The notes: generated by a model not told the origin, from the sequence alone. DNA of 64,000 nucleotides from Pseudomonadota bacterium (GCA_038532855.1 JBCAZT010000002.1:1557-65556), one strand, 5' to 3'. Shown: positions 25,175-33,538, counted from the first letter of the stretch. Numbers and translations are program-made.

Positions 25175-26086
25175 CTAAGCGGGCGGGGAATACTGCGCGT
25201 TGCGCCGCGCCATAGTCAGCATGGAACGCGCATGACGGGCGGCCACTTCATGCGGGTCGCCATAGCCTCCGCCAAGGGCCGAAGCGATTGCAAGCCCCCG
25301 TGATCTGGCCGTATCAAGGACGTAAGTATCGCGTTGTTCGAGGCCGGTATCGGTCAATGAAAGTCTGCCCAGCCTGTCATCTTCATGAGGATCAACGCCT
25401 GCTTGATAGAGCACAAGATCGGGCTCAAATTCGGCAAAAATAGGCGGCAAGCATTTGTCGAGCGCCTCGAGATAGCCTTCATCATCGAGGTGATCGGGCA
25501 GAGCGATATCGAGATTTGAGCGCGCTTTTCTAACTGGGAAATTCTTTTCAGCATGCAGCGAGAGCGTGAAGATATCCTCTCGTCCCGCGCTAAGGCTGGC
25601 GGTCCCATCACCCTGATGCACGTCGAGATCGATGATGAGTATGCGGGTCGCATCGCCTTCAGCAATCAAACGATTGGAAGCGACCGCAAGATCGTTGAAC
25701 ACGCAGTACCCCGCGCCCGTATCGGCAAGCGCATGGTGGCTGCCGGCGGCTGAATTGGCAGCATATCCGTGCTTCTTCGCCAATTGGGCTGCAAGCCAAG
25801 TGCCGCCATTGGTGTGGCGCACACGGTCACGGATTTTGGCGGTGACCGGAAAGCCGATGCGGCGTTCTTTCTCTTGCGGAACCTGGGCGCGGAAGACTTC
25901 ATCGACGTAAGATGGATCATGCACCGCCTCTAACCATTCGCGCGGGCAGGGATCAGGCGCGTGCTGGGTGATCGCCTCCCCGCTTTCCCGAAGCGCTTCC
26001 ATCACGAGATAGTATTTGTCGAACTTGAAGGTTCCGCGCGTGGGTTGCGGTGCCATGTAATCGGCGTGGTGGACAACGTGGAGCAT
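25175..26086 (-). CDS. histone deacetylase family protein (acetoin utilisation/AcuC-like deacetylase)
   Basis: GSHHALADTGAGYCVFNDLAV, IIDLDVHQGDGT and GGGY motifs. Confidence 0.9.
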   Translation of the reverse strand: MLHVVHHADYMAPQPTRGTFKFDKYYLVMEALRESGEAITQHAPDPCPREWLEAVHDPSYVDEVFRAQVPQEKERRIGFPVTAKIRDRVRHTNGGTWLAAQLAKKHGYAANSAAGSHHALADTGAGYCVFNDLAVASNRLIAEGDATRILIIDLDVHQGDGTASLSAGREDIFTLSLHAEKNFPVRKARSNLDIALPDHLDDEGYLEALDKCLPPIFAEFEPDLVLYQAGVDPHEDDRLGRLSLTDTGLEQRDTYVLDTARSRGLAIASALGGGYGDPHEVAARHARSMLTMARRNAQYSPPA

Positions 26087-26388
26087 TAGGTAAACAGCGG
26101 CCCCAAATCGCGGCTGCCATGAAGCACACGCACAATTGCGACTTTACCAGCAATCGTGTCAACGCGGTAGAGGATGAGATAGCGTTCATAAACTAGACTG
26201 CGCAAATTTGGCGCTAGTTCGTCTCTAGATCTGCCCATGAAAGGCAGATCACGGAGCGCTTCCGCCTTGGTGTTAAGCGCGCGAATATGCTTCGTAGCGG
26301 CCTCAGGATTGTCTTGCGCAATGGCCAGCCAAATGTCGTCGAGGTCTCTGGTGGCCGCGTTGGACCACGCAATACTCAACGTCATCAA
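26086..26388 (-). CDS. parE: type II toxin, RelE/ParE family
   Basis: 100 aa. Pattern A..DL..IW.YIA.DNP.AA......L......L...P..GR......P.LR......Y.I.YR. 4-nt overlap with the upstream antitoxin gene. Confidence 0.85.
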   Translation of the reverse strand: MMTLSIAWSNAATRDLDDIWLAIAQDNPEAATKHIRALNTKAEALRDLPFMGRSRDELAPNLRSLVYERYLILYRVDTIAGKVAIVRVLHGSRDLGPLFT

Positions 26389-26654
26389 TCGGACTTTAGC
26401 CGTTCGCGGCCACGCGTTATGATGCCCTCCACATCAAGCGGCCCTTCGATATACCCACTCGCATCGCCTTCCGCGATTAAAGCGCGCAGTTCTGCAATCG
26501 CAGCGTCTTTTTTGACCTTTTGTTCTTTCCAATCGCGCAAAGCTTCGCGAACGACTTCGCTGGTGGATGCGTAATCGCCTGTCGCGACGGCTTGCTGAAC
26601 ATCGGCCAGCAATTCTTCGGTAAGTGATACTGAGATTTTTTCGACTTTGCCCAT
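26385..26654 (-). CDS. parD: type II antitoxin, ParD/CopG (ribbon-helix-helix) family
   Basis: ATG at 26654 gives MGKVEKISVSLTEELLADVQQAVATGDYASTSEVVREALRDW, typical of ParD. Confidence 0.8.
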   Translation of the reverse strand: MGKVEKISVSLTEELLADVQQAVATGDYASTSEVVREALRDWKEQKVKKDAAIAELRALIAEGDASGYIEGPLDVEGIITRGRERLKSD

Positions 26655-26690
26655 AGCGAGATTGGTAGCACTTTTTGCTACTCGGGGCAA

Positions 26691-27224
26691 TTATGGCGCT
26701 GGTTTGGGACTTTTGTCGTCTGCCAGCGTTGCCAACTCCTCAAAAATCGCATCTTCCTCGCGGCTGGCGGTGTTGCGCCATGTGGTTGCAGTATCGGCGT
26801 TGAGAGGCTCCCCTTCAGCTGTCAGCACCAGCAAGTTTGGTGTGCCGGGCAGTTCCTCAAGACCAAACCTGCGGGCGATCTCTAGATTGTGCCCATCGCC
26901 TGTCTGCGGCATTCCGATATTGACGAAGACGAGTTCGTATCTCTCGTCGATCAAAGCTCTAAAACGGTCTGTCGCGAGCCAACCCGCCAAGGCGCGACTG
27001 TCATGGCACCAGTTTGCGCCCATCACGAGCAGGACGCGTCTGTCGTTTTCAGCAGCGCGCGAGAGAGCCGCATCCACTTCGGCCGAGGGGTCATCGGATA
27101 CGGTGTAGCTTTCGGCCTCAGGGTAATCATGCCCTCCTGCGGAGGAGGATATCTTGCTTGCTAATGCCGCACCCCCACCGAGCAAAAGCGCAGCTAACAC
27201 GCCGCTCAAAAGCGCTTTTATCAT
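26691..27224 (-). CDS. secreted thioredoxin-fold protein (WCxxS motif)
   Basis: Signal peptide [38 protein letters not shown] thioredoxin-like motif. ATGA overlap with the ispG stop. Confidence 0.65.
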
Positions 27225-28360
27225 TCAGCAGCTTCCGCAGCATGCGGATCGAAAGCGACCTCTTCGCCCGCTTCGATCTTGGCCGCTTTTTCCTCGACCA
27301 GTTTCACGATGTGATTGAGCATATCCTCATCATCGATGGCATGCGCTTTCATGCCCGATAGGTAGACCATATGCTTGCCATTGCCGCCGCCTGTGAGGCC
27401 AATATCGGTCTCGCGTGCTTCGCCAGGGCCATTGACCACGCAGCCAAGGACGGAAAGCGACATGGGCGTTTTGATATGTTCGAGCCGCTTTTCGAGGGTC
27501 TCAACCGTGCGGATGACATCGAAGCCTTGGCGAGAGCAGCTGGGGCAAGAAACTACGCGAACGCCGCGTGTCCTGAGGCCCAAAGCTTTGAGCATCTCGT
27601 ACCCAACCTTCACCTCTTCCTCAGGCTCAGCCGAGAGCGAGACGCGGATTGTGTCGCCAATGCCTGCCCATAGCAACGAACCCATACCGATGGAGGACTT
27701 AACCGTCCCTCCGATCAGCCCGCCAGCCTCAGTAATGCCAAGGTGCAGCGGGCAGTCCACCGCATCTGCTAGGCCATGATAGGCAGCGACCGCGAGGAAC
27801 ACGTCGGAGGCTTTCACAGCGACTTTGAAATCGTGGAAATCGTGGTCTTGCAAAAGCTTGATATGGTCGAGAGCGCTTTCGATCAGCGCCTCTGGGCAAG
27901 GCTCGCCGTATTTTTCGAGCAGGTCCTTTTCTAGGCTGCCCGCATTCACGCCGATACGGATAGCGCAGCCATTGGCTTTTGCTGCGCGCACCACTTCGGC
28001 AACGCGGTCTGATGATCCGATATTGCCGGGATTGATGCGCAGACACGCCGCCCCGCCATCTGCCGCTTCCAAAGCGCGCTTGTAGTGAAAGTGGATGTCG
28101 GCAACGACCGGAATGTTAGATGCGCGCGTAATCAGCGGAAAGGCTGCTGTGGCCTCTTCTGTTGGGCAAGAGACGCGGATTATATCGCAGCCCACCTCTT
28201 CGCAGCGGCGGATCTGATCAATTGTCGCGGCTGCATCTTCGGTGGGGGTGTTGGTCATGGTTTGCACCGTGATCGGCGCATTGCCGCCCACAGGCACATT
28301 GCCCACCATAATCTGACGGCATTGCCGCCGCTCTATATCGCGCCAAGGTCGAACAGACAT
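27221..28360 (-). CDS. ispG: 4-hydroxy-3-methylbut-2-en-1-yl diphosphate synthase (flavodoxin)
   Basis: 379 aa. [45 protein letters not shown]. Confidence 0.97.
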
Positions 28361-28445
28361 AGCCCGCTATATAGGCGTGCAAAGAAGAAGGGGCAATGAC
28401 GCGTGTTGCGTGCATTGCCCCTTCTCCAAAATGGGATGAGAAGGT

Positions 28446-29126
28446 TTACCAGCGGATCAGTGGCGGAACCGCGATCCGCGCTGCGACAGCCCAAATAAGG
28501 ACGGGCGCGGTATGCCAGATGCCGACATGTGCAATCGTATCGAGCGGGCATGTGATGTTATCTGCGAGTGCTCCCAGCGAACCAGAAGCAAGTCCCGTAA
28601 GCCAGCCTGCACGTTCGAGCGAGACCGGCGCGCCGCGACGCAAGAACAAGACCGCAGCAACAGCTACGAGAAAACCAGCCATGGAGCCATAAGCCGCACA
28701 CTCCCAATACCAAGTCGCTGCGTCATTCCAGACGCTTTGCACATGGGCTGCGTGGTCATGATTGGCTTCGAGCGCAGTGATGGTGATAAGTGCCGCTATC
28801 GGGACCACCCCAAGCATTGCAGCGCTCCAGAACGGGGCTGAACCGCGCGCCCCAACTTTCGGGAGAGCAGACGAGATTAAAGCCGACGTGCTCGCAGCGC
28901 CCAAAACCAAAAGCAGCAGGTTTGTGATCCAGTAAAAGGCCGAAGCCTCACCCGTGATCATGCCGCTCCAAAATTCAAAAATTGCGATGCAGGCTATGCC
29001 TGCCACCAAGGTGGCAAAACCGATAAGGAACGCCCCATCGCGCGGTTTTATCCGGCTAACGGGCTCCAGTTCTTGCGTAAGGGACGCAATCAGATCTTCG
29101 CGGTTCGCTTGCTTTTCCATTGTCAT
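28446..29126 (-). CDS. nrsF: NrsF-like (DUF1109) anti-sigma factor, 6-TM
   Basis: N-terminal LIASLTQELEPVSR motif, six hydrophobic helices, two periplasmic-loop Cys (WYWECAAYG, NITCPLD). ATGA overlap with the ECF sigma gene. Confidence 0.8.
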   Translation of the reverse strand: MTMEKQANREDLIASLTQELEPVSRIKPRDGAFLIGFATLVAGIACIAIFEFWSGMITGEASAFYWITNLLLLVLGAASTSALISSALPKVGARGSAPFWSAAMLGVVPIAALITITALEANHDHAAHVQSVWNDAATWYWECAAYGSMAGFLVAVAAVLFLRRGAPVSLERAGWLTGLASGSLGALADNITCPLDTIAHVGIWHTAPVLIWAVAARIAVPPLIRW

Positions 29127-29653
29127 TCGACTTCCTCAACCAACGTGGCCAGCTTTTTAAGGCCGCGATGGATATTCACTTTTACCAGGCTTTCGCTTTG
29201 CCCTGTTTTGTCCGCTGCCTCGCGGATTGATAGTCCGTTTATCTTCACAAGCTCTATCGCTTCGGCCTGTTTATCAGGCAGTTGCGTAAACAACCGGTCA
29301 AGACTGACCCGCGCCAAAACAACCTCTTCTTCGCTGTCTTCAACCGCGTCATCTTCCATCAGCTCGTTTGCATCGTGTTTGTACACTTTGCGCAAATGAT
29401 CGACCCAGCGGTACCGTGCGATGGCCGCAAGCCAAGGCAGAAAAGGACGTTTCGGGTCCCATGTGGCGCGTTTGGTGTAAAACGCAATAAGCACTTCCTG
29501 CACTAGATCATCAATCTGATGCGGAGGCACTCGGCGGCGAAAATACCGCTCCAGCCACACACCCACCTCGGTAAGCAGCACATTGGCGGCGGCTTTATCA
29601 CCGTCCTGTGCTGCCACCATTAGGCGGGAGAGGGTTGGTTCGTCAGCGACCAT
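29123..29653 (-). CDS. sigF: ECF-type RNA polymerase sigma factor (SigF-like)
   Basis: 176 aa. Region 2 (DDLVQEVLIAFY...FLPWLAAIARYRWVDHLR) and region 4 (LPDKQAEAIELVKINGLSIREAADKTGQSESLVKVNIHRGLKKL). Confidence 0.9.
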   Translation of the reverse strand: MVADEPTLSRLMVAAQDGDKAAANVLLTEVGVWLERYFRRRVPPHQIDDLVQEVLIAFYTKRATWDPKRPFLPWLAAIARYRWVDHLRKVYKHDANELMEDDAVEDSEEEVVLARVSLDRLFTQLPDKQAEAIELVKINGLSIREAADKTGQSESLVKVNIHRGLKKLATLVEEVE

Positions 29654-29664
29654 CGTTCTGGGCC

Positions 29665-30138
29665 TTATGCCGACTTTTCAGCGAAAAGGCGATCAGAGAT
29701 GCGATCAAGGCTAAACAGTCCGCCACCGCGTGAGATCAATACGAGAGCCAAGGCAATCGGCGTAATAGCCCAACCCCAGAAATGGTCCGCCGTTGGGAAG
29801 ACGAAAATCTGAATGACCAGCGTCATGACCATCAATGCAACCGCCGAAAAGCGCGTGAACAAGCCAACAAACAAGAGCAGCGGAAACGCAAACTCTGCAT
29901 AGGTGGCCATTGGCACTGCCAAATCGGTTGGAAGTGGCAATCCGGCAAACTCATTTTCGAACAGGAAATACTGGATTTCATCGATTTCGAACCAAGTGCC
30001 TTCAACCACTTTGGTTTTGTAGGAACGCCAGAAAATCAACGCCAGCGCACAGCGCGCAAGCACCAGGCCAACGGCTTCCATGAAAGTGCCGGAAAGAAAG
30101 CTAACAAGGCTGCGATATAAAGAAGTGATTGTGTTCAT
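29665..30138 (-). CDS. DoxX family membrane protein
   Basis: 157 aa, 4 TM. ARCALALIFWRSYKTK...FAFPLLLFVGLFTRFSAVALMVMT is typical of DoxX. Confidence 0.85.
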   Translation of the reverse strand: MNTITSLYRSLVSFLSGTFMEAVGLVLARCALALIFWRSYKTKVVEGTWFEIDEIQYFLFENEFAGLPLPTDLAVPMATYAEFAFPLLLFVGLFTRFSAVALMVMTLVIQIFVFPTADHFWGWAITPIALALVLISRGGGLFSLDRISDRLFAEKSA

Positions 30139-30208
30139 TGTGTCCTCCTAAGACCGAAGGCGCGGTGTTACATGCCTGAGCACCGCCGCCCTCGCCTCTT
30201 TCTATACG

Positions 30209-30490
30209 TTACCGTTTGATCGGCTTGAGTGAACCATTGCCTTTGGGCGTTTTGATTTTGGTGCAGGTGCCCTTGTTTACCAATTTCCAGGCATTGCCCT
30301 GCCAGTCCCGAGTGGAAGTGCCAGCGCAGCTTGTGCCTGGGCCTGCGGCGCAATCATTTTTGCCGGCTTTCGATACGCCGTAGCATTTTTCTTTTGCGCC
30401 TTGTGCTGCAACCGGAGTTGTCGCGAGGCCTGCTGCAATACCTGCGGTAAGCGCAAGGCCTGCAAAATTTGTGATCGTCTTGGTGTTCAT
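30209..30490 (-). CDS. bufA: DUF2282-type Cys-rich secreted peptide (bufferin-like RiPP precursor)
   Basis: Track ORF 30209..30718 is over-extended. The ATG at 30490 gives 93 aa: a Sec signal [31 protein letters not shown], then [43 protein letters not shown] (4 Cys). Confidence 0.8.
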
Positions 30491-30553
30491 CAGGGGTCTC
30501 CAAAAAAATTCTATTTCGTCGTGTCCGGCGCGATTGCCGGTGATGACATGCCA

Positions 30554-30579
30554 TTCGCCGCGAGACGCAAGACGGTTAC
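30554..30579 (-). promoter_or_regulatory. putative ECF (SigF-type) promoter GTAACC-N16-CGAA for bufA-doxX-sigF-nrsF
   Basis: Plus strand reads TTCG(30554-57)-N16-GGTTAC(30574-79), which is GTAACC-N16-CGAA on the minus strand. It lies about 63 nt upstream of the bufA ATG. Confidence 0.5.
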
Positions 30580-30635
30580 AAACGGACCGATATTTTTCGA
30601 ATTTTTGTGAATTTACGCTCTGATCCAGGCACTTT

Positions 30636-30661
30636 GTAACGCTTGGCCGCTCCAGCGCGAA
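30636..30661 (+). promoter_or_regulatory. putative ECF (SigF-type) promoter GTAACG-N16-CGAA for DUF692-DUF2063
   Basis: GTAACG 30636-41, a 16-nt spacer by direct count, CGAA 30658-61. Back-to-back with the minus-strand copy. Confidence 0.45.
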
Positions 30662-30883
30662 TTGCTGCATATAACATGCCCGATTGGGCGGTTTGCGCGC
30701 TCTATCGGTTTGCTTCATTGCCTTTCAGAGCGTTGGCCGTCCGGCAGTCTGACGATGGCTTATGCGTTTTTATCTCTTGCACCTGACCACCCCACCGCAG
30801 GGGTGAAAGCGCGCAGGTTATTCGCCAGACTGCCACCTTTATTGGGCCAAGAAATTTCAAGCGAACCCTGTTAGGAACACATT

Positions 30884-31756
30884 ATGGCTCAGCCACAAAC
30901 ACAGATCGCCCCCTTTGCAGGCTTTGGCCTTGGCTTTCGATCCGAGCACTTTGCTGATTTTTTGGACGCGCCCAACGATGCGCGTGTCCCTGTCGATTTT
31001 CTCGAAGTGATCAGTGAAAACTACATGGTCGATGGCGGCCGTCAGCTTCGCATTTTAGATGAAGCGCGCGCGCTATATCCCGTGATCTTACATGGCGTTT
31101 CGATGTCGATCGGTTCGGCTGAGGGGTTGGATCGTGATTACCTTGCGCGGTTGAGAGCCTTGGCTGACAGAATAGAGCCGCTTTGGGTGTCGGATCATTT
31201 GTGCTGGACCCGAACGAGCGCGCATAACAGCCACGATCTGCTCCCCCTACCGCTTACCGAAGCGGCGCTTGGCGCAGTGTGCGACAATATCGACCACGCG
31301 CAGGAAACGCTGGGCCGTGCGATGCTGTTTGAGAACCCATCGAGCTATCTAACCTTCCCCGAAGACGAGATGAGTGAGTGGGAGTTCCTCAGTGAGATGA
31401 CCCGCCGCACTGGCTGTTATTTGCTACTTGATGTGAACAATATCTATGTCTCTAGCCAGAACCATGGATTTTCAGCCGATGATTACCTGACCGGGCTTCC
31501 TCTCGACAGAGTGCGGCAAATTCATCTTGCGGGGCATGATCCTGCAACCCCTGAACGCGATATCATTATCGACACGCACGACCGCGAGGTCTGCGATGAT
31601 GTTTGGGCGCTTTATGCCAAGGCTTTATCGATGCTGCCCGGACCGGTGGCCACGATGATTGAGCGCGATGACAACATCCCGCCATTGGTTGATCTTTTGG
31701 AAGAGCTGGATCGGGCGCGGGGCATTGCGCGCGGGCATGCCTTGGAACCTGCTTAG
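30884..31756 (+). CDS. bufB: DUF692 / MNIO family (multinuclear non-heme iron oxidative) enzyme
   Basis: 290 aa. GFGLGFRSEHF...FLEVISENYM...HGVSMSIGS...VSDHLCW...FENPSSY...LLLDVNNIYVS...IHLAGH is typical of UPF0276/DUF692. Confidence 0.9.
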   Translation: MAQPQTQIAPFAGFGLGFRSEHFADFLDAPNDARVPVDFLEVISENYMVDGGRQLRILDEARALYPVILHGVSMSIGSAEGLDRDYLARLRALADRIEPLWVSDHLCWTRTSAHNSHDLLPLPLTEAALGAVCDNIDHAQETLGRAMLFENPSSYLTFPEDEMSEWEFLSEMTRRTGCYLLLDVNNIYVSSQNHGFSADDYLTGLPLDRVRQIHLAGHDPATPERDIIIDTHDREVCDDVWALYAKALSMLPGPVATMIERDDNIPPLVDLLEELDRARGIARGHALEPA

Positions 31757-31758
31757 AT

Positions 31759-32550
31759 ATGGCTTCATCTGGTCTTGCCGAACGCCAAGCGGCTTTTATG
31801 CGTGCTATTCTGGATGATGGCGCACCACTGCCTGAAGGCTGGGGCAATTCGCAAAGCGCAGGCATGGCTGTTTATCGCGGCAATTACCGGTCCGCGGTAA
31901 TGGATGCGCTTGCCAGCAGTTTTGAACGCACCGCTCGCTATGTTGGCGGTGATGCTTTCCAGCAAGCCAGCATGCACCATGCGATCACCCATCCGCCATC
32001 GCATTGGACAATCGATGCGGTGGGCGAAGGGTTTGATGCAACCTGCGCTCAATTGTTTGCAGACAATCCCGAAGTGGCTGAGCTTGCATGGCTCGAATGG
32101 ACCATGCTGAACGCGTCGCGGTCAGCCGATAGCGAAGCGGTACAAGCTGCCCCGTTCGCTGAAGCCTCTGTCAATTTTGGCGATGAGGATTGGACATCCT
32201 TGATGCTTACCTTTCAGCCCAGATCCGCTGCTCGAATAGTGGAGCATGATCTGGCTGGCATGTGGCGTATGCTTGATGAGGAGGCTGAGGAAACCGCTGA
32301 ACTGGGGCCACAACAGCCGCGAGGCGTTCTGGTTTGGCGAGAGGGCGAACGCCCCACATTCCTGATGGTTGATCCCGATAACGCGCTCGCATTTTCTGCG
32401 ATGATCGAAGGCGCAAATTATGGCGAGGTCGTTGGCTTATTGGCGGGCGAAGAACCAGATGCAGACAGCATACAAGCAGCAGCGATGAAAGCGGGTGAGG
32501 CGCTTGGTCTGTGGCTGAATGAAGGGCTGATCGCTTCGTTCCAGACTTGA
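31759..32550 (+). CDS. bufC: DUF2063 domain protein (MNIO partner, BufC-like)
   Basis: 263 aa. N-terminal RQAAFMRAILDD...GMAVYRGNYRSAVMDALASSFERTARYVGGDAF is characteristic of DUF2063. Starts 2 nt after the DUF692 stop. Confidence 0.8.
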   Translation: MASSGLAERQAAFMRAILDDGAPLPEGWGNSQSAGMAVYRGNYRSAVMDALASSFERTARYVGGDAFQQASMHHAITHPPSHWTIDAVGEGFDATCAQLFADNPEVAELAWLEWTMLNASRSADSEAVQAAPFAEASVNFGDEDWTSLMLTFQPRSAARIVEHDLAGMWRMLDEEAEETAELGPQQPRGVLVWREGERPTFLMVDPDNALAFSAMIEGANYGEVVGLLAGEEPDADSIQAAAMKAGEALGLWLNEGLIASFQT

Positions 32551-32599
32551 CTTAAGCGCGCATCGCTTCACTCTCTCCCACAAGAGAGAGGGTCATCGC

Positions 32600-33538
32600 A
32601 TGCTTACCACACCAATCACACAAATACGCAGCCAAAAGCCGAGCCTTTTGCTCAAAACCGTGAAGTGGGTGATGTCGCGTCGCACGCCCGTATTCCCGCA
32701 TACCAGCGCGGAATTTCGCGAGTATATGGCCAGCCGAACCTTACCGCTTGATGCCCCCATGCCGTCGAAATTCGCGCAAAAGTACGATGTGAGCGAATGG
32801 GAAGCTGCGGGGCAAAAAGTTGTGACACTGCACCCCAAATCTGGCCCTGCTGAATGGCACATGCTCTATTTTCATGGCGGTGGTTTTGTGCGCCCGATGT
32901 TTAAAGAACATTGGCCGCTGGTTGCAGCGATGATCGATACGTGCGGGGTCAGCGTGACTGTGCCGCTTTATGAAGTAGTGCCTGAAAGCTCGCATCAAGT
33001 GCAGGATGATCTGGCTGATGCGGCTTTTGCCAAGCTTGCTGAAAGCCACGATCCTCAAAAAATCATCCTAAATGGGGATAGCGCTGGCGGGCATATGGCG
33101 TTGAGCCTTGCTTTAAGATTGGCGCGAGCCGGCGGTCCGCAGCCCGGCAAGCTTGCTCTGTTTGCGCCGTGGCTTGATCTCACCATGGCAGACCCAGCTA
33201 TCGAAGCCGTTGAGCCCCACGATATCATGCTGAAAATCGGCACTTTGCGTGAATGCGGTCGAATGTTTGCGGGCGCGCGCGATCCTGCGAGTGGGGAATG
33301 CAGCCCGCTTTTTGCGTCGTCTGAAGACTTATCACTCCTCCCGCCAACGCGCATTTGGACCGGGCAGCACGATCTTTTTATCGTGGATTCGCGCAAATTT
33401 GCCGCGCGCCTCAACGAAGTTGGCGTTGATGCAAAACTGTACGAATATGCCGAAGCCCCGCATGTGTTTATGGCCGTGGTGCCCACACGCGAGGCTAAGG
33501 ATACGCTTAAGCTTTTGAATGAATTTATCGCCGAATAG
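32600..33538 (+). CDS. alpha/beta hydrolase, hormone-sensitive-lipase-like esterase
   Basis: HGGGF oxyanion motif and the GDSAGG nucleophile elbow. Confidence 0.85.
   Translation: MLTTPITQIRSQKPSLLLKTVKWVMSRRTPVFPHTSAEFREYMASRTLPLDAPMPSKFAQKYDVSEWEAAGQKVVTLHPKSGPAEWHMLYFHGGGFVRPMFKEHWPLVAAMIDTCGVSVTVPLYEVVPESSHQVQDDLADAAFAKLAESHDPQKIILNGDSAGGHMALSLALRLARAGGPQPGKLALFAPWLDLTMADPAIEAVEPHDIMLKIGTLRECGRMFAGARDPASGECSPLFASSEDLSLLPPTRIWTGQHDLFIVDSRKFAARLNEVGVDAKLYEYAEAPHVFMAVVPTREAKDTLKLLNEFIAE

Follow-up and report, generated by a model that had tools for sequence, protein, structure and literature searches.

A hybrid Buf1/Buf2 bufferin locus with twin ECF16 promoter motifs, shared by dozens of related marine bacteria

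In this study, we analyzed the gene cluster at 28446-32550 of a 64,000-nt stretch of DNA from a Pseudomonadota bacterium (GCA_038532855.1; hereafter the window), which was the sole part of the source genome scanned. Its genes are of the bufferin type, bufferins being a very large and recently recognized class of copper-binding RiPPs (peptides made on ribosomes and modified after translation). We found that the locus is a hybrid: one ECF16 sigma/anti-sigma switch is joined to a precursor/DoxX module of the Buf1 family and to an enzyme module of the Buf2 family. This layout is common to dozens of related marine bacteria. The gene identities, the promoter motifs and their conservation, the enzyme lineage, the loss of the bufA2 gene, and the purifying selection were all computed here. 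We think it fairly probable that the locus is a stress-inducible periplasmic copper-binding bufferin cassette, made of parts of two bufferin families and one ECF16 sigma/anti-sigma pair.

The six open reading frames (ORFs) form two divergent units with a 393-nt spacer between them. On the minus strand, the leftward unit starts with bufA1 (30209-30490, ATG at 30490), which encodes a 93-aa precursor matching Pfam DUF2282/BufA1 (4.7e-24, 84.6 bits). It is followed after 70 nt by doxX (29665-30138; BufD-like membrane protein, Pfam DoxX 1.5e-13), after 11 nt by an ECF16-type (SigF-like) sigma factor gene, sigF (29123-29653), and then, with a 4-nt ATGA overlap, by nrsF (28446-29126), encoding an NrsF/DUF1109 anti-sigma factor that matches Pfam NrsF over its full length (1.1e-29). 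The sigma factor matched Pfam Sigma70_r2 and r4_2 only, and its cognate nrsF lies downstream. On the plus strand, the rightward unit includes bufB (30884-31756), encoding an MNIO (DUF692) maturase of the Buf2 lineage (Pfam MbnB_TglH_ChrH 1.1e-104), and, 2 nt further, bufC (31759-32550), encoding the DUF2063 partner of the MNIO (Pfam DUF2063, N-terminal domain, 1.9e-15). A first-pass annotation of this DNA had given the same six ORFs, and our coordinates and spacings agreed with it exactly. The profile searches that it proposed returned all of its families (DUF2282, DUF692/MNIO, DUF2063, DoxX, NrsF/DUF1109, and Sigma70_r2/r4), and these matches, together with the promoter motifs described below, support its view that the genes are a RiPP set of the bufferin type which has a SigF/NrsF (ECF16) switch of its own.

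BufB passed the NCBIfam MNIO_BufB equivalog (369 bits, cut-off 310). The scores of NrsF (24.5 bits, cut-off 300), of BufC against HvfC (25 bits), and of DoxX against HvfX were below the equivalog cut-offs. Thus, NrsF, BufC, and DoxX are regarded here as family members and not as equivalogs. In PDB sequence searches, BufB matched 3BWW and MbnB entries, and the searches with BufA and BufC returned no relatives. The 4-Cys core of the precursor was borne out, because C36, C47, C55, and C76 of BufA1 are invariant in 41 of 41 orthologues. A Sec signal peptide is predicted for BufA1, supported by a hydrophobic N-terminal segment (residues 9-27) and by knowledge of the family. In addition, NrsF contains two Cys, C143 and C193, which are 50 residues apart and invariant in all 41 orthologues.

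Relatives were collected by scanning one genome per species with the window BufB, which yielded 80 loci. The top matches came from Erythrobacter, Porphyrobacter, Qipengyuania, Altererythrobacter, and Pontixanthobacter, and the best BufB was 86% identical. The order nrsF<sigF<doxX<bufA <> bufB>bufC was found in 43 of the 80 loci (43 species-level genomes), mostly in Erythrobacteraceae and other Sphingomonadales, and the same gene order is present on a RefSeq-annotated Sphingobium megaplasmid. These matches place the source in the Erythrobacteraceae, as a species outside the representatives scanned; an exact copy of its BufB is on record only in the SRA (Logan) assembly SRR22824336. Thus, the split divergent layout, which the first-pass annotation had called unusual, is a real feature, but it is clade-wide and not peculiar to the source genome. 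In all 43 split-layout genomes, doxX lies directly downstream of bufA1. Furthermore, a bufA1-doxX pair without its own MNIO also stands beside bufA2BC in Pseudomonas, Burkholderiales, Lysobacter, Novosphingobium, and Sphingobium. This constant pairing, even without Buf1 enzymes, points to a post-export, peptide-linked role of DoxX. The role of DoxX and the substrate choice of MNIO and partner enzymes are current questions on which the locus bears. A separate observation concerns two metagenome-assembled genomes, of Congregibacter (L042) and Pseudohaliea (L048), which are labelled as gammaproteobacterial Halieaceae, yet have the Sphingomonadales-type split layout with bufA2 (BufB identity 64-69%). 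Either horizontal transfer or mis-binning could account for them.

The enzymes on the plus strand had been taken for the precursor's own. Our results contradict this, because BufB and BufC belong to the Buf2 lineage. The identity of BufB to Asticcacaulis BufB2 is 60%, compared with 43% to BufB1 of the same genus and 45% to BufB1 of S. meliloti. Similarly, BufC matched BufC2 of Asticcacaulis (97 bits) better than its BufC1 (54 bits). The precursor and DoxX are 65% and 46% identical, respectively, to their buf1-side counterparts in the Asticcacaulis cluster. In the neighbor-joining tree of BufB (rooted with a BufB1), the bufA2-bearing lineages were basal and the bufA2-less ones were nested within them. 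Sixteen split-layout relatives have a second precursor gene (about 95 aa, six Cys) between the rightward promoter and bufB, and this gene belongs to the BufA2 family (NCBIfam NF050166, 103 bits, cut-off 60). Among BufB relatives that are more distant (L045-L080), nearly all likewise have a BufA2 gene directly upstream. It is missing upstream of bufB in the window and in 27 split-layout relatives. No BufA2 relic was detected in the bufB leader by tblastn (word size 2) or by an nhmmer profile built from 15 bufA2-bearing leaders, so the loss was clean or old. Within the 64-kb window, we found no BufA2 gene by tblastn and no second MNIO. Instead of Buf1-lineage enzymes co-linear with the precursor (bufA1-bufB1-bufC1-doxX), the locus has enzymes on the opposite strand that group with BufA2-adjacent enzymes. 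Taken together, the Buf2-lineage enzymes and the BufA2 kept in 16 relatives indicate that the present layout is what is left of two bufferin operons that were divergent, rather than a buf1 operon that was rearranged. We also considered the small ORFs of the bufB leader (223 nt) as genes and rejected them, since they are unconserved even in comparison with L001 and L002 (DNA identity 0.4-0.56).

The ECF16 consensus is (T/C)GTAAC-N17-CGAA (PMC8315932), and the SigF motif of Caulobacter was mapped experimentally as GTAACC-N16-CGAA (PMC3511200). We scanned both strands of the window for GTAAC-N17-CGAA and found it only twice in 64 kb (0.21 expected). Both sites are in the 393-nt divergent spacer, back to back, and each is directed at its own unit. 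P_bufA (30554-30579, minus strand; TGTAACC-N16-CGAA) lies 64-89 nt upstream of the bufA ATG and is identical to the mapped Caulobacter motif. P_bufB (30636-30661, plus strand; TGTAACG-N16-CGAA) lies 223-248 nt upstream of the bufB ATG. A divergent bufA/bufB pair was also found in 44 related loci; 43 of these have the leftward motif, at 63-111 nt before the bufA start, and 42 have the rightward motif, which in 16 loci precedes a bufA2 gene. The sequence between the motif elements was unconserved across these loci. In 537 kb of related loci, there were 92 ECF16 sites, and all but six were inside the divergent spacer; four of the six exceptions sit directly before sigF (L033, L034, L037, and L038). 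These results give strong comparative support, although not direct proof, for control of both units by SigF. The twin back-to-back ECF16 motifs in the spacer, kept as a pair across about 43 related genomes, are new here. Such a self-contained layout with twin promoters is a compact sense-and-respond module, which could be transferred to other hosts in one piece. The two closest relatives have a further, third ECF16 motif some 3 kb downstream of bufC (L001 10771 and L002 10763, both on the plus strand). The window has no counterpart of it at the equivalent position, which is at about 35.6 kb, close to where a mechanosensitive-channel-like gene begins, and it may be a lineage-specific extra SigF target or a chance occurrence.

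All six genes showed dN/dS of 0.03-0.24, with dS partly saturated, which indicates purifying selection. The values were about 0.06 for bufA1, 0.055-0.073 for bufB, and 0.089-0.154 for bufC, which is fast-evolving yet under purifying selection. The metal-ligand and catalytic motifs of BufB are invariant, and the bufB and bufC ORFs are intact in all 27 bufA2-less genomes. The loss of the adjacent precursor gene could suggest that BufB and BufC are functionless leftovers of a decayed buf2 operon. This explanation is effectively refuted by the selection data, and the intact ORFs, the retained promoter, and the invariant BufB motifs are also against it; we regard it as extremely improbable.

On which peptide, then, would the two enzymes act? 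BufA1 is a homologue of BufA2, and its four Cys correspond in the alignment to Cys I, III, IV, and VI of the latter. Published models of the two peptides were described as very similar (PMC11626156). A recent study puts a selectivity determinant immediately behind the catalytic Asp: Buf2-type (Cys-Lys) MNIOs have an Asp there that contacts the substrate Lys, whereas it is unconserved in DUF2282-type enzymes (PMC13097082). In the window BufB, the motif is IERD(D263)N, and Asp263 is the Buf2-type Lys-contact residue. All 52 BufA2-adjacent enzymes had Asp at this position, and three Buf1-type enzymes had H, G, or S. Where bufA2 is not adjacent (30 enzymes), the residues were D19/E9/A2, that is, the Asp was replaced in 11 of 30 compared with 0 of 52, although the Fisher test on Asp263 overstates the effect because the changes are mostly D to E and phylogenetically clustered. 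This relaxation fits a real loss of the BufA2 substrate in the clade. Based on the purifying selection, the invariant Cys and motifs, the homology of BufA1 and BufA2, and the Asp relaxation, we suggest that BufB and BufC may mature BufA1, which would be supplied from the opposite strand.

In addition to the D-to-E bias and the clustering of the Asp263 changes, several other points weigh against this suggestion. The window BufB itself keeps Asp263, the Buf2 signature, and a Cys-Lys motif is missing at the central Cys of BufA1. The modification of a DUF2282 precursor by a Buf2-type MNIO and BufC is thus far inferred, and a bufA2 or a Buf1-type MNIO could lie outside the 64 kb inspected. The retained Asp263 and the scope of 64 kb would agree with an arrangement in which the two units share a regulator but have separate substrates. 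In that case, BufB and BufC would act on a BufA2 encoded elsewhere, and BufA1 would be matured by a distant Buf1-type MNIO or would work unmodified, as a Cys-rich metal binder of the periplasm together with DoxX. In surveys, sizeable fractions of bufferin precursors are indeed unlinked to an MNIO gene (PMC12452194). Nevertheless, the 64-kb window contains neither a BufA2 gene nor a second MNIO, the replacement of Asp by E or A argues that BufA2 is gone from at least part of the clade, and the twin promoters tie both units together in 42-43 of 44 loci. We therefore consider separate substrates unlikely, but the strongest competitor of a BufB/BufC pair that acts on BufA1. We also tried the Arg-Arg site near the BufB N-terminus (R15/R16 of FonB) as a discriminator, and it did not separate the enzymes with an adjacent bufA2 from those without one (p = 0.07). 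Another genome considered was GCF_000013005 (labelled only 'Bacteria'), which we take to be Erythrobacter litoralis HTCC2594. No MNIO is given for it in the part of Table S2 of the MNIO survey available to us (PMC12452194).

The clade offers a natural experiment of three grades on this question. Two precursor classes share one enzyme pair in 16 genomes, only the "wrong" class is present in 27 genomes and the window, and both full sets are present in Asticcacaulis. Thus, substrate tolerance across the two families is directly testable.

The sigma factor of the window is 43% identical to that of the Asticcacaulis buf cluster. The association of a sigma/anti-sigma pair with such genes had been called unusual, and this does not hold, because earlier papers describe it in Caulobacter (buf1), in S. 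meliloti (RpoE7), and in Buf1 clusters generally (PMC11626156, PMC6180224, PMC12452194). The first-pass annotation had also proposed that sigF-nrsF is co-transcribed with the precursor. On the comparative side this is well supported: spacers are tight or overlapping in 43 genomes, and the gap between doxX and sigF is -11 to +28 nt in nearly all relatives, without an ECF16 motif before sigF. The gap is 36-70 nt in exactly four relatives, and these are the same four that have the extra ECF16 motif before sigF. It seems that a sigF promoter of its own arose or was kept where the tight coupling to doxX got lost. One of the four (L037) has no motif before bufA. Thus, sigF-nrsF is probably transcribed together with bufA-doxX. 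A further observation concerns the nrsF gene itself. The region 28011-29210 covers nrsF and the first part of ispG. Its nrsF segment is 93-96% identical to L002 at the DNA level (dS 0.24), and the flanks of this segment are 75-85% identical (dS 0.7 or more). In L001, which is equally close, nrsF is only about 50% identical in DNA and 55% in protein, and the adjoining sigF product has about 91% protein identity to both. The nrsF sensor gene looks mosaic, as if recombined between lineages.

The 70-nt spacer between bufA and doxX folds into a GC-rich hairpin (30155-30194, minus strand; -27.5 kcal/mol, z = -2.3). It has a CAGGCA loop, lacks a U-tract, and lies directly before the doxX Shine-Dalgarno sequence. 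Orthologous spacers were taken from L001-L024 and L044. In 19 of 20 spacers of the Erythrobacter clade, a stem of 7-19 bp and of varying sequence closes the conserved loop YCAGGCAAA. The stem pairs were kept in 147 of 152 cases, each stem position showed 3-5 pair types, and the 19 sequences had 16 different arms; this was a loop-anchored count made in Python and fitted to the structure, and it should be read accordingly. When the hairpin was aligned with MAFFT and folded with RNAalifold, no structure resulted, since the loops differ in length and the arms are therefore shifted against each other. An Rfam search of 27500-33500 (E<=1) returned no match. Across about 1 Mb of loci plus the window, strong hairpins of this kind occurred almost only at the bufA-doxX spacer. 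The bufA2-bearing relatives have short spacers and no hairpin. The conservation of the loop suggests a specific binding partner, and the hairpin probably stabilizes or attenuates the message, which would raise bufA mRNA over the regulator genes.

The same hairpin could be read in another way. If it were a real terminator of the bufA message, sigF-nrsF would need an unseen promoter; an unrecognized housekeeping promoter would then drive doxX-sigF-nrsF, and there would be no single self-amplifying unit. The stability and GC-richness of the hairpin are in favor of this. So is the basal expression of the ECF16 sigma genes of Caulobacter and Brucella, which is independent of their own sigma (PMC3511200, PMC8315932). 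In addition, the Caulobacter sigF operon is only weakly autoregulated, which counts against a switch that amplifies itself (PMC3511200). However, the hairpin has no U-tract, the spacer consists of nothing but the hairpin and the doxX Shine-Dalgarno sequence, and hairpin-less relatives have spacers of 20-50 nt. Moreover, an ECF16 motif precedes sigF only in relatives with a widened doxX-sigF gap. A scan of 28000-33000 gave no sigma-70-like site, although such a scan is uninformative for an alphaproteobacterium. Independent transcription of sigF-nrsF is therefore quite unlikely in our opinion, and we prefer the co-transcribed operon.

Gene sets of this type and their sigma control have been published, and thus neither is new here. 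In Caulobacter vibrioides, BufB1 (MNIO) and BufC1 (DUF2063) turn two central Cys of BufA1 into 5-thiooxazoles (-10 Da including the disulfide), the Sec signal peptide is unneeded for this modification, and DoxX is dispensable for both modification and copper protection (PMC11626156). Both Caulobacter buf operons are in the SigF regulon, and sigF-nrsF adjoins buf1 (PMC11626156). The buf1 operon of Caulobacter (bufA1B1C1D1, CCNA_03363-03366) resembles the window in its 4-Cys Sec DUF2282 precursor, MNIO, DUF2063 protein, DoxX, SigF motif, and two-Cys NrsF. In the Caulobacter NrsF, two essential Cys have been mapped (PMC3511200). The spacing of 50 residues is shared by the window (C143/C193), Caulobacter (C131/C181), and Brucella (C129/C179). 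However, the four buf genes of Caulobacter form one co-linear operon and sigF-nrsF another, under a promoter of its own, whereas in the window bufA1-doxX is joined to sigF-nrsF and the enzymes, of a non-Buf1 lineage, are on the other strand. Compared with Caulobacter buf2 (bufA2B2C2) and other Buf2 clusters, the window BufB and BufC are orthologous to the BufA2-adjacent enzymes, including the Lys-contact Asp, but the window has no BufA2. In addition, a survey of MNIOs lists sigma and NrsF genes for Buf1 and not for Buf2 clusters, and also notes tandem precursors (PMC12452194).

Other known loci are split in a similar way. On plasmid pASEM-1 of Asticcacaulis excentricus (L081), the units are divergent, BufA1 and DoxX are on one side, and BufB2, BufC2, and SigF/NrsF are in the locus. 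The order there is doxX<C1<B1<A1 <> A2>B2>C2>sigF>nrsF; unlike in the window, both units are complete (bufB1C1 and bufA2 are present) and sigF-nrsF follows bufC2. This locus looks like the ancestral state. At 8115-9421 of L081, the sigma gene is followed by a tandem of two NrsF-family genes, and this whole regulatory set runs co-linear with bufA2B2C2. Five other loci (L051, L058, L060, L072, and L075) have the order sigF>nrsF>bufA2>bufB>bufC. Sigma/NrsF genes beside bufA2, as in these loci, are awkward for the published statement that restricts them to Buf1, although these clusters are composite and also have bufA1-doxX. Sphingobium sp. RAC03 (pBSY17_1, L083) and 15 other bufA2-keeping genomes share the split gene order and the twin ECF16 promoters with the window, but in these bufA2 lies between the promoter and bufB, so that two precursor classes face one enzyme pair, and the bufA-doxX hairpin is absent. 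S. meliloti has an ECF16 pair, RpoE7-EcfR7, which is transcribed divergently from four genes of a buf1-like operon (SMb20527-SMb20530), with an ECF16 promoter on each side (PMC6180224). The divide in S. meliloti is between regulators and a complete buf1 operon, whereas in the window it is between precursor, DoxX, and regulators on one side and enzymes on the other. Thus, the two features that had been called unusual in the window are real, but they are clade-wide and otherwise explained. What is new here is the hybrid Buf1/Buf2 architecture with twin promoters throughout a clade, and current understanding is not contradicted by it.

The following mechanism is proposed, in which the inducer, the co-transcription, the role of the hairpin, and above all the action of BufB/BufC on BufA1 are inferred. 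NrsF, a membrane protein with two invariant Cys, would hold SigF inactive until metal or oxidant stress. The freed SigF, with RNA polymerase, would then fire both spacer promoters. The leftward transcript would include bufA1, the hairpin, doxX, sigF, and nrsF, and the presence of sigF and nrsF on it would allow the switch to amplify and then reset itself. The hairpin would probably keep the bufA message above the regulator message. The rightward transcript would supply BufB (MNIO) and BufC (DUF2063 partner), which may turn C47 and C55 of BufA1 into 5-thiooxazoles in the cytoplasm. BufA1 would then be exported by Sec, lose its signal peptide, form the C36-C76 disulfide, and sequester periplasmic copper. 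As judged from the gene orders, the simplest history is that an Asticcacaulis-like divergent pair would have lost bufB1-bufC1, sigF-nrsF would have been relocated behind doxX, and bufA2 would then have been lost in the Erythrobacter clade. All parts taken jointly, the proposal is that the Buf2 MNIO/DUF2063 pair was reassigned to the Buf1 precursor after the loss of the Buf1 enzymes and BufA2, that DoxX is tied to BufA1, and that the covarying CAGGCA-loop hairpin, not described before, sets the ratio of precursor to regulator in a self-amplifying ECF16 operon. We put this combination at somewhat below an even chance.

Just downstream of nrsF, between ispG and a histone-deacetylase-family gene, the minus strand contains further genes at 26086-27224, with no associated ECF16 motif. 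They include a parDE toxin-antitoxin pair (ParE 3.4e-19, ParD 4.1e-10) and a gene for a secreted thioredoxin-like protein (Thioredoxin_7), in which WCHDS replaces the CxxC motif.

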